A stretch of 64,000 bases of DNA, taken from NCBI GenBank assembly GCA_037200965.1, contig JBBCGK010000001.1:416001-480000 (forward strand), in the 5' to 3' direction. Below are positions 61,948 through 64,000 of this stretch, piece by piece. Origin of the DNA: a bacterium. GTDB taxonomy: Bacteria; Patescibacteriota; Minisyncoccia; Phycocordibacterales; Phycocordibacteraceae. Positions within the stretch are counted from its first letter, which is position 1. Each line of letters starts with the position of its first letter. Position numbers and translations under genes: made by a program. Below the pieces are notes generated by a model. It was not told the origin of the DNA, did not search any database, and worked only from the letters and a program-made list of their open reading frames with translations.

Positions 61948-62238
61948 CTAGTCGGGATCGTAGGGATTATTGGTATCCGTGCCATTGCGCGAGGAACCAG
62001 ACGGCGAACTATACGGATCGACGCGCTTGTGACCTTGCTCGCCCGTATAGGGGTTCACGTTTGGATACGTCGAGTAATTGTTATAGGGATTGCTGTCAGG
62101 CGATGAGCGATGGTGTGGCGGAACATACGTGCCGTCCTTCCGCACATAGCCTCTGACACTGACGTCCTTCGCTGCCGCCTCAGCGCCAGTGGCCAGCAGG
62201 GTCGTGAAGACCAAAAGGGCGGCAAAAATCTTGCGCAT
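61948..62238 (-). CDS. small secreted protein (Pro/Tyr/Asn-rich)
   Basis: Signal peptide MRKIFAALLVFTTLLATGAEAAA; 96 aa. Confidence 0.45.
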   Translation of the reverse strand: MRKIFAALLVFTTLLATGAEAAAKDVSVRGYVRKDGTYVPPHHRSSPDSNPYNNYSTYPNVNPYTGEQGHKRVDPYSSPSGSSRNGTDTNNPYDPD

Positions 62239-62348
62239 ATTAACTCCGATCAAAAATGCGGCTCGATGCTAGTTTAGTGGCTGGCGCAGGGCCAGAGGAA
62301 TAATCTTCGCAAGCGTGCGTCAGGCCACGCCCTACGGTAACGCGTCGA

Positions 62349-63314
62349 TCAGTTCGCCTCGTCGAAAATCCCATTCAGGATCGCCCCAAGCCGCACCCCT
62401 GCCGCCTGCAAGCGCTCTTCCACGATGGCGGCGCGGTCTTCCTTGTAGTTGCCGTCGGGCGCGAAGACGCGAACGGCGCCACCGGTATACGTCTCGCTGT
62501 CTTCGGAATAGCGGCAGGTGGTGCCGGAGAGCGTACAGTATCCGGTGTCGGGCGCGCGGGAGACGGTGAGCGATTCGTTGGCCCATACCATCGGATCGAG
62601 CGACGCCTTCCACGTTGCCCGCTGCTCGTCCGTGATTTCCTTTTGAAGAACATTGCCAAACGCCTCGCGCCCAGGGCCTGCTGGCTTCGTCTGCGCGATG
62701 TGGAGATCACGCATGACTTGTTCGGGAATGCAGGTGTCCCACACGGTATGGAGCGCGGTTTTGCCGTCATAGGCGCAGCCCGAGACGCCCTTCACGCCGA
62801 CGCTGTTGCCGCCGCGATCATCGGCATACGAAATGTGGAGCGGCTGGTGTATGTCGCCGAGCCAGTGCCCGAGGAATTTGAGGGCCGTGCGCTTCTTGTC
62901 GGTTGAGGCATTCGGGTCTTTGAGGATGGCGATATCGGCGGGGATGGCCGTGAAAAGGCACGTCGCCGCATTCACGCACTTGGCCTCGGGGAAGCTCGTC
63001 CAATCGCGCGGCATATTGATGAAGTGCTCCGCCCTCCGGCTGCTTTGCACATCGCCCTTCTCGTCCGGCCAGGTGCAGGCCCCGTGGAAGGTTCTCGGTA
63101 TCTCCTTGCCGTCAGCGTCCTTAAGCGGGGTTTCTGAGCGGATAAGCTTGTTGACCGCCTTGCGGGCCGTCGGCGTGAGCTCCTTGTATGCGATCTCGCA
63201 GACCGCCTCGTGGCCGGTGCCGCCGAAGGCGAGGGCACCGCTCGTTGTGAGACAAAGACTGACGAAGCCACCAGCTCCAAACAGCGCAAGAAGAACCCGC
63301 CGACGTCCACCCAT
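62349..63314 (-). CDS. secreted S1/P1-family zinc nuclease
   Basis: Signal peptide; ...FLGHWLGDIHQPLHISY... (S1/P1 Zn-binding motif); ...TALHTVWD... Confidence 0.7.
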   Translation of the reverse strand: MGGRRRVLLALFGAGGFVSLCLTTSGALAFGGTGHEAVCEIAYKELTPTARKAVNKLIRSETPLKDADGKEIPRTFHGACTWPDEKGDVQSSRRAEHFINMPRDWTSFPEAKCVNAATCLFTAIPADIAILKDPNASTDKKRTALKFLGHWLGDIHQPLHISYADDRGGNSVGVKGVSGCAYDGKTALHTVWDTCIPEQVMRDLHIAQTKPAGPGREAFGNVLQKEITDEQRATWKASLDPMVWANESLTVSRAPDTGYCTLSGTTCRYSEDSETYTGGAVRVFAPDGNYKEDRAAIVEERLQAAGVRLGAILNGIFDEAN

Positions 63315-63486
63315 GTACCCGCTCCCCCTCACTATTCGTGCCCAGGATGCGAGGACTCGCCCTAGCCGAAGAACGGATGATGCCCGGATGATTTCACCCG
63401 TCCAAGAGGAATGTGCGCCTTAGACTTCGTATCGGGCCGGGCCTATGCTGCTTCTATTGGTGGGGTGTTTCTCAGGGGGTATTGGC

Positions 63487-64000
63487 ATGACTAGCGGCAC
63501 GCGAGTTTTTCCGACGCGTTCGTATCGGGCATCATTTCCCATTCATGCGCTTCTTGCCGTCTTCGCGCTTCTCGTCGCGGGTGCGTATGGCCCGGCCGGT
63601 TCGGCCTTGGCCGCGACCAGCGCGGCGTCCTTCTGCCTTGACGCATGCCCCGAGGGCGCGCCGGCAAAGAACAAGACGGTCGTGCACCATGTCTATGCGC
63701 TCAGCTCGAACCCCGACACGAAATTCGCCGATTGGGTCGCGTACAAGATCTCCAAAGCGACCATCGGGTCGAACTGTTCGCGCAAGTGGGCGAAGGACCC
63801 GGACCTAGCGGCCGGCACCACGCTCAAGCCCGCCGATTACAAGGACATCAGTGCGGCGCTCCAGTCCGACCGGGGCCATCAAGCGCCCTTGGCAAGCCTA
63901 TGCGGCTCGAAGTTCAATGCCGAGGCGAACTATCTCTCGAACATCACCCCACAAAAGTCCGACCTCAATCAGGGCGCATGGGTGCGGCTCGAAACCGCCG
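63487..64000 (+). CDS. secreted DNA/RNA non-specific endonuclease (Serratia NucA family); runs off the right edge of the window
   Basis: Manual translation: MTSGTRVFPTRSYRASFPIHALLAVFALLVAGAYGPAGSALA (signal)...SDRGHQAPLAS (DRGH active-site motif)...; no stop before 64000, so absent from the ORF track. Confidence 0.6.
   Translation, partial: MTSGTRVFPTRSYRASFPIHALLAVFALLVAGAYGPAGSALAATSAASFCLDACPEGAPAKNKTVVHHVYALSSNPDTKFADWVAYKISKATIGSNCSRKWAKDPDLAAGTTLKPADYKDISAALQSDRGHQAPLASLCGSKFNAEANYLSNITPQKSDLNQGAWVRLETA

Follow-up and report, generated by a model that had tools for sequence, protein, structure and literature searches.

The 64,000-nucleotide stretch of patescibacterial DNA analysed here (positions 416,001 to 480,000 of contig JBBCGK010000001.1, assembly GCA_037200965.1; hereafter the window) encodes at its right-hand end, and partly just beyond it, two complete, predicted exportable nucleases, one of the S1/P1 zinc-nuclease family and the other of the Serratia NucA type. 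Judged by their sequences, both enzymes are ordinary new members of well-known families and carry the features expected of members. The enzymes alone are a modest finding, and the unexpected part is their genomic setting. The two genes lie on a 10.9-kb segment bounded by perfect copies of a 36-nt repeat of the CRISPR type, and they appear not to be native to the host lineage but to be cargo of a proteobacterial-type mobile element. The explanation that we prefer, with a confidence slightly above even, is that the exportable nuclease pair was carried in on a foreign fragment by repeat-directed insertion and that the enzymes are passengers rather than a selected function. The nuclease genes and their immediate neighbours are as follows.

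61948..62238, minus strand: small96, a Pro/Tyr/Asn-rich secreted-type protein of 96 aa, with GGAG 6 nt upstream of the gene
62349..63314, minus strand: S1/P1-family zinc nuclease of 321 aa, PF02265, with a predicted cleavage between ALA and FGGTGH
63315..63486, no strand: divergent intergenic region between the two nuclease genes, 172 nt
63487..>64000, plus strand: Serratia NucA-type DNA/RNA non-specific endonuclease, PF01223, the first 171 codons lying in the window
Window-equivalent 64373-64660 (contig L002, 2505-2792), 22 nt downstream of the NucA-type gene: Cys-rich secreted-type protein of 95 aa, without a family name

S1/P1 enzymes are tri-zinc enzymes that prefer single strands, act both as nucleases and as 3'-nucleotidases, and yield 5'-mononucleotides. 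The S1/P1 gene of the window starts with the ATG at 63314, preceded by GAGGGGGAG approximately 8 nt upstream, and its product matched PF02265 with an E value of 4e-48 and a score of 164.9 bits, the curated cut-off being 29.5; the match spans positions 2-258 of the 258 in the profile. The signature HWLGDIHQPLH is encoded at 62867..62835. The matches of the protein in the PDB were plant ENDO2, the bacterial S1/P1 chain 8qjl, and the S1 and P1 nucleases. Alignment to ENDO2, chain 8qjl, and 15 metagenomic or genomic relatives showed that all nine zinc-ligand positions (residue 1, H6, D45, H60, H116, D120, H126, H149, and D153 in P1 numbering) are kept, as F30, H35, D84, H97, H150, D154, H160, H189, and D193, respectively, and the His and Asp columns among them were invariant in 16 relatives. 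Mature position 1 is occupied by Phe (F30) instead of Trp; 11 of the 15 closest relatives also have Phe and the other four have Trp or Tyr. The zinc ligands at this position are presumably main-chain atoms, as in the P1 structure. The N-terminus consists of three Arg residues, a hydrophobic core, and the ALA-FGGTGH site (according to a heuristic, not SignalP), and the predicted cleavage would place an aromatic residue at mature position 1, as the zinc site of the family requires. The solved S1/P1 structures, namely 8QJL, ENDO2 (3W52/4CXO), Aspergillus S1 (5FB9), and Penicillium P1 (1AK0), have the full-length PF02265 domain and all nine ligand positions in common with the present protein. In contrast to them, it has Phe at position 1, eight invariant cysteines, and insertions, and it is a member of a mostly alphaproteobacterial subfamily.

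The NucA-type gene continues beyond the window. Read from the source contig, the complete gene encodes 287 aa and ends 350 nt past the window (window-equivalent 64350; L001 350-1255). The partial open reading frame (ORF) in the window already matched PF01223 (Endonuclease_NS; E value of 3e-21, 76.5 bits) and contains the DRGH motif at 63868..63879. Residues 49-286 of the complete protein align with residues 8-243 of the Serratia nuclease, the whole mature enzyme, with an E value of 1.7e-66. In Serratia numbering, R57, R87, H89 (of DRGH), the Mg-binding N119, E127, and R131 are kept, as are both disulfide pairs, Cys9-Cys13 and Cys201-Cys243 (fCldaC/nCavgC and adyC...lgC alignments), of Serratia marcescens NucA (PDB 1G8T, 1SMN, and 1QL0), with which the protein also shares an N-terminal signal peptide, predicted here by the heuristic. 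Approximately half of the aligned residues are identical. The present protein differs in having two extra cysteines and in its location, which is a Patescibacteria chromosome, a repeat-bounded foreign segment, and the vicinity of a gene for a 95-aa Cys-rich secreted protein. The family assignments, the catalytic motifs, and the signal peptide-like N-termini of both nucleases given in a preliminary description of this DNA, made from the sequence alone, are borne out by these results. Degeneracy of the catalytic residues, which that description had named as a reason to abandon the proposal, was looked for; the zinc ligands, the His of DRGH, and the other catalytic residues are all intact.

NucA-type enzymes are Mg2+-dependent beta-beta-alpha-metal endonucleases that cut double- and single-stranded DNA and RNA to 5'-phosphorylated oligonucleotides. 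With activities taken from the families, NucA and S1/P1 together could reduce extracellular nucleic acid to nucleotides: NucA would release 5'-phosphorylated oligonucleotides from any nucleic acid, and S1/P1 would trim the single-stranded products to 5'-mononucleotides. Signal peptide-like N-termini with two to three Lys/Arg residues, a hydrophobic core, and an Ala-X-Ala-type site (again by the heuristic, not SignalP) are present in both nucleases, in small96, and in the 95-aa Cys-rich protein. No sigma-70 consensus promoter was found in the divergent intergenic region, and the promoter and terminator counts in 58700-64000 were no higher than those in shuffled sequence. A NucA gene occurred within 6 kb of the S1/P1 gene in only two of the 80 genome loci examined (see below); the pairing is thus not a conserved operon.

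The two small proteins differ in their relation to the nucleases. Small96 had been counted as part of the nuclease locus in the preliminary description. Its secreted-type N-terminus stands, by the heuristic, but its association with the nucleases does not: a search of the comparison loci, among them 82 with an S1/P1 gene, gave no match to it, and it was therefore dropped as a candidate nuclease accessory. The protein holds one copy of a motif of about 45 aa, VRGYxRxDGTYVxPHxRSxPDGNxxNNxSTxxNxNPYTGxxG, and had no Pfam or NCBIfam match. Its family is very large and unnamed (4406 representative clusters at E<=1e-3), and often displays two to four copies of the motif in longer proteins. Judged by the gene neighbourhoods, it is instead the 95-aa Cys-rich protein (pattern SIASYPGxCPCPY...CGxRSAYSRPGGYAPLCY) that accompanies these nucleases; its homologs adjoin NucA or S1/P1 in four loci (L090, L091, L092, and L021), and it may serve the nucleases as an accessory or act as their inhibitor.

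The relatives of both enzymes point away from the host lineage. A single genome from each of 185,579 species was scanned; this gave 551 relatives of the S1/P1 protein, of which the best 80 were examined. Nearly all of these 80 were from Alphaproteobacteria (Allosphingosinicella, Sphingomonas, Bradyrhizobium, Rhizobium, Rhodomicrobium, and Caulobacter), with a few from Gamma- and Deltaproteobacteria, and the best identity was 50%. Only one of them bore a Patescibacteria label (Saccharibacteria), on a contig of 1.7 kb. The best metagenomic matches reached 55% identity. The NucA relatives with names were from Pseudomonadota/Alphaproteobacteria (50-57% identity); the closest NucA relative was 73% identical, and on its contig a gene for a Cys-rich protein of 99 aa and a TonB gene come after it. 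The two closest S1/P1 relatives adjoin genes for a type IV coupling protein (T4CP)-like ATPase, SRAP, SIR2, and DprA, and a homolog of the Cys-rich protein precedes each of them; these surroundings look like those of mobile elements. The GC content and GC3 (the GC content at third codon positions) per gene were tried as a test of origin and did not discriminate, the GC3 values being 0.77-0.79 in the nuclease genes and 0.65-0.80 in the host core genes. The preliminary description had regarded the locus as fitting an organism that scavenges nucleotides. The alphaproteobacterial relatives (no more than 55% identity for S1/P1), the proteobacterial and mobile neighbours, and the CRISPR-type repeats bounding the block speak against a scavenging module evolved in this lineage.

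The genes are nevertheless located in the chromosome of a Patescibacterium. The host chromosome is a closed circle of 960,259 bp (record JBBCBH010010897.1) that carries the exact S1/P1 protein. In the tables of the assembly paper, this record is listed as the main contig of the metagenome-assembled genome (MAG) 5_UBA9983_A, which is classed there as Patescibacteria; Paceibacteria; UBA9983_A; UBA2103; C7867-001, and by SILVA as Candidatus Kaiserbacteria, with a GC content of 57.3% and 46 tRNAs. The DNA came from deadwood, and the sequence is from a PacBio HiFi co-assembly by hifiasm-meta with a mean read length of 18 kb. The window ends 699 nt before the end of the record. Two Logan contigs, L002 from a HiFi run and L003 from Illumina sequencing of the same wood, run from record position 960259 into position 1 at 100% identity and with neither gap nor overlap. 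Since the record ends join each other, the nuclease genes sit inside the closed circular chromosome. A chimeric assembly, in which a proteobacterial nuclease block had been wrongly joined to the end of a Patescibacteria contig, would account for the proteobacterial gene content, for the position of the block at the very end of the deposited contig, and for the breaks of short-read contigs at the repeats and at window position 60569. We consider it very unlikely, at the lowest level that we assign to any explanation, on account of the exact junction in both the HiFi-based and the Illumina-based contigs. In addition, the block continues on the same contig with a LysR gene (record positions 642-1625), HiFi reads of 18 kb cannot be falsely overlapped through a repeat of 36 nt, and in the assemblies searched the exact S1/P1 protein was found in this context only. 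A short-read MAG contig (L086) also carries tatD, the repeat, and the adjoining 2.18-kb segment contiguously, and the same junction is present in an Illumina Logan contig (L087).

The nuclease block proved to be one of five segments in an array of repeats that follows cas1 and cas2. The parts of the array that fall in the window, apart from the genes listed above, are as follows.

56550..56585, minus strand: last copy of the CRISPR-type repeat in the array, 36 nt, 16 nt from the tatD start codon
56586..58765, plus strand: separate foreign segment of 2180 bp (the nucleotide-modifying cassette), with a PurZ-like gene and a 250-aa gene between a MazG-like fragment and the first 20 codons of a P450 gene
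58766..58801, minus strand: CRISPR-type repeat at the boundary between the 10.9-kb and 2.18-kb segments, 36 nt, perfect
58804..59418, plus strand: 3' fragment of a large serine recombinase gene, about 200 codons, its 5' end cut by the repeat and its frame open from the repeat
59402..60715, plus strand: type IV secretion system (T4SS) coupling-protein-like ATPase of 437 aa, with TrwB_AAD_bind and DUF87
60866..61855, plus strand: stand-alone ATP-grasp ligase of 329 aa, with RimK/ATP-grasp Pfam matches

The repeat, GTTGCACAACCTCCTTTTTACGAACGATCCTGCAGG, occurs in six perfect copies, all in one orientation, within 19.2 kb after cas1 (0 expected by chance); four copies are located at the start of the record (L093 621-6590). 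The order is cas1, cas2, 32 nt, repeat-2903-repeat-1375-repeat-1548-repeat-10,933-repeat-2180-repeat (lengths in bp), 16 nt, and tatD, after which come the core genes S6-SSB-S18. Each of the five segments has a perfect repeat at both ends, and wherever the frames were readable the genes at the borders are cut at the repeats (patatin, SpvB, recombinase, MazG fusion, and P450). No degenerate copies were found with 10 mismatches allowed, and there is no copy in the other 56 kb of the window. The product of cas1 has 351 aa and matched PF01867. The repeat strand read in the direction of the cas genes forms a hairpin of -10.4 kcal/mol (z -2.5). An Rfam scan of the array region gave no CRISPR-DR family or other convincing match, and neither JGI metagenomes nor IMG/VR yielded the repeat in exact and relaxed searches. 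In L090-L092, the closest nuclease loci, no copy of the repeat and no similar array were found. A look-up with tatD for strains with another state of the array returned only the same site with the same arrangement. The repeats flanking the 2.18-kb cassette were at one stage taken for a target-site duplication or att sites; this was dropped on account of the four further copies after cas1-cas2.

The nuclease segment itself, 10,933 bp between two perfect repeats, contains in order a SpvB/FG-GAP fragment, a 78-aa ORF, GNAT, LysR, an Xre-type helix-turn-helix gene, the 95-aa Cys-rich protein, NucA, S1/P1, small96, the ATP-grasp ligase, the T4CP-like ATPase, and the serine-recombinase fragment. Its first end lies in the middle of the SpvB/FG-GAP toxin gene, which is cut after 545 codons with its frame running into the repeat. 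The recombinase fragment at the other end represents the 3' third of a gene; in an alignment it covers residues 339-496 of a recombinase of 515 aa from Sulfitobacter (E value of 1e-6). The T4CP-like ATPase is 49% identical to a gene of a Sulfitobacter plasmid, where it also follows a serine recombinase, and 76% identical to a fragment on L092, the locus of the second-closest S1/P1 relative. The best NCBIfam match of the ATP-grasp ligase was the ATP-grasp part of cyanophycin synthetase (E value of 7e-48), far below the cut-off of that family. Both Logan contigs, HiFi and Illumina, end exactly at 60569, inside the T4CP-like gene, and the 437-aa product is not identical in another NCBI assembly; both observations point to strain-level variation inside the foreign segment. 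Elsewhere in the window, a second T4SS coupling-protein-like gene (663 aa; TrwB_AAD_bind and TraG-D_C) lies at 5554-7545 among glycosyltransferase genes, and T4CP-like ATPases are thus not confined to the foreign segment.

For one segment of the array, the 2180-bp one next to the nuclease block, a donor was found. It is 99.95% identical to positions 8647-10830 of L084, in the interior of an integrative element that carries integrase, AlpA, relaxase, and T4CP genes on a 4.0-Mb contig of the same co-assembly. In the donor, the genes that are cut in the segment are intact: the MazG domain ends a 297-aa fusion protein, and the P450 gene is complete with 402 aa. The 20.7-kb donor locus lacks the 36-nt repeat, its best match being 20/36 positions, a chance level. 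The T4CP-like gene of the donor is nearest to proteobacterial plasmid genes (39-40%). A 6.6-kb contig of another NCBI assembly is collinear with the segment, the repeat, and the nuclease block, by gene positions alone. Among the other intervals, the 1548-bp one (L093 5200-6540) codes for 446 aa that matched phrog_3030 and have 379 relatives among the viral contigs of IMG/VR, likely a protein of the phage tail-fibre type, and the 2903-bp one ends in a patatin gene cut by the repeat. The codon usage of the 2180-bp segment and of the three small intervals is unlike that of the host (r 0.16 and 0.47, respectively, vs 0.96 for host subsets).

The nuclease block and the 2180-bp cassette are two separate segments that differ in origin and age. 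A connection between the nucleases and this cassette, suggested in the preliminary description, loses its ground, because the two are divided by a repeat and the cassette has an independent, very recent origin. As an observation on the cassette itself, the region 56595-58692 encodes a PurZ-like adenylosuccinate-synthetase homolog of 343 aa (phrog_1211, E value of 6e-72; N-terminal GSEGKG) and a 250-aa neighbour without a family. The MazG-like/PurZ-like cassette, carried by an integrative element and not by a phage, resembles a 2-aminoadenine-type cassette in an unusual carrier.

In several respects the array is like a canonical CRISPR array: identical 36-nt direct repeats that form a hairpin and share one orientation begin 32 nt after cas2 and separate foreign inserts of phage, integrative-element, and plasmid-like DNA. 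As in CRISPR acquisition, one insert here is flanked by repeats that its donor lacks. In contrast to the canonical arrangement, the inserts are 1375-10933 bp long and contain whole and truncated genes, 40-300 times too long for spacers of 25-70 nt; there are no short spacers and no degenerate terminal repeat, and almost no room is left for a leader at either end. Genes for an effector were not encountered in the cas neighbourhood, of which the part up to record position 11,625 was read. We do not file the array as a canonical CRISPR array, since short uniform spacers are absent. In full-text searches of the literature, genes or inserts of kilobase size lying between CRISPR repeats did not come up. 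Integron cassette arrays offer another comparison, as in them repeated sites separate gene-sized pieces of acquired DNA beside an integrase-type gene. However, the present sites are identical 36-mers instead of imperfect attC sites, cas1-cas2 adjoin them, and cut genes in both orientations take the place of promoterless whole-ORF cassettes. The 24 kb that were read showed no IntI. In the absence of IntI and attC sites and with genes cut at the borders, the array is not an integron.

The structure, in which foreign DNA is enclosed by repeats that its donor lacks, is the one that spacer acquisition produces, and repeat-directed insertion is for this reason favoured. In the explanation that we prefer, a random-ended fragment of proteobacterial-type mobile-element DNA would have entered between CRISPR-type repeats, and its insertion would have been directed by the repeat, most simply through Cas1-Cas2 integrating very long DNA. 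The nucleases are provisionally regarded as passengers. We propose only tentatively, and with less confidence, the more general idea that the CRISPR adaptation module, or another repeat-directed activity, inserts kilobase-sized foreign DNA, so that the array would be a site for the capture of whole genes from phages and from neighbouring or host bacteria, with the nuclease pair as captured cargo that may be used.

The 10.9-kb block might instead be the remnant of an integrative or mobilisable element, placed through the action of the serine recombinase that it carried or through homologous recombination with an element bearing the repeat or matching spacers, with Cas1-Cas2 uninvolved. The serine-recombinase fragment and the T4CP-like gene are ordered as on the Sulfitobacter plasmid, and the closest S1/P1 relatives stand beside T4CP-like genes in element-like contexts, both of which are compatible with such a remnant. 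Nevertheless, the recombinase is cut at one border and the toxin gene at the other, and therefore neither end is the end of an element. The cuts in border genes at the edges of perfect repeats (patatin, SpvB, recombinase, and both ends of the 2.18-kb segment) recur in an array whose five segments are all repeat-bounded, and the repeat is missing from the sole known donor and was not found in related loci. On these grounds we judge the remnant explanation improbable.

Several points weigh against the preferred explanation. The gene following cas1 encodes a protein of 98 aa with only a weak Pfam Cas2 match (E value of 0.003), and the cas neighbourhood was read to record position 11,625, which does not cover the whole cas operon. 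No array combining the 36-nt repeat with normal spacers was found anywhere searched, and the donor of the 10.9-kb segment was not found. The datasets with these sequences that were traced, a set to which two earlier MAG assemblies at NCBI do not belong, all come from one forest site; the assemblies are thus independent in sequencing technology and assembler but not in population. The codon usage of the 10.9-kb segment matches that of the host core genes (pooled relative synonymous codon usage (RSCU), r 0.92). The RSCU correlation was rejected as evidence either way, since unrelated proteobacterial loci with a GC content of 59% also score 0.92-0.94. Finally, the genes within the segment, apart from its ends, are all intact, which would also fit a long residence under selection. 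Intact internal genes are compatible with recent capture as well as with selection, and codon usage does not separate the two.

The latter point bears on a third alternative, in which the origin and location of the segment are as described above but the host keeps the nucleases for its own use: after export by the Sec pathway, the enzymes would break down DNA and RNA from the environment or from a host and supply nucleotide salvage in a cell that lacks de novo synthesis. This is the function suggested in the preliminary description. Both enzymes and the other internal genes are not only intact but also preceded by good Shine-Dalgarno sequences, and the strain variation in the segment, seen in the T4CP-like product that differs between assemblies, suggests a residence over which strains have had time to diverge. 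That Patescibacteria secrete nucleases to salvage nucleobases is an already published hypothesis, and 15 of 28 activated-sludge Patescibacteria MAGs encode secreted nucleases for which salvage was proposed (PMC11495043). The present organism is like those cases in being a reduced-genome Patescibacterium with genes for nucleases that bear (here predicted) signal peptides. In contrast to the published nucleases, which are mainly of the SNc type (PMC11495043), those of the window belong to the S1/P1 and NucA families, have their affinities with proteobacterial enzymes, and lie in the context of a foreign fragment. Retention by the host is also countered by the single Patescibacteria label among the best 80 S1/P1 loci, by the presence in the segment of genes without obvious use in such a cell (LysR and the toxin and recombinase fragments), and by the dependence of both enzymes on several disulfides, which this host may be unable to form. 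Nucleotide scavenging by the host is thus possible, and plausible as the published idea, but we hold it to be rather unlikely as the reason for the presence of these genes, and the explanation of captured passengers is preferred.

The analysis also provided observations on the remainder of the window. The host has a reduced genome, the record being a Patescibacteria chromosome of 0.96 Mb with introns in its rRNA genes. The 16S rRNA gene (17773-20084) is interrupted by an insertion that contains an ORF for a LAGLIDADG endonuclease (18731-19474), and the 23S rRNA gene (33882-38226) spans 4345 nt with a group I intron at 34304-34520. The rRNA genes are unlinked, 16S being separated from 23S/5S by approximately 14 kb. 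A 246-aa ORF at 51409-52149, without a family, has a GC3 of 0.45 and a codon-usage correlation of 0.14 with the core genes, and lies between recA and a sigma-factor gene with GC3 values of 0.74-0.77. This ORF looks like another recent acquisition, outside the array.

If the integration activity is real, it would be new both as a way in which ultra-small bacteria acquire genes and as a behaviour of the CRISPR adaptation machinery. Furthermore, the near-identical fragment in common with a co-resident 4-Mb bacterium could help to identify the bacteria that the episymbiont touches.

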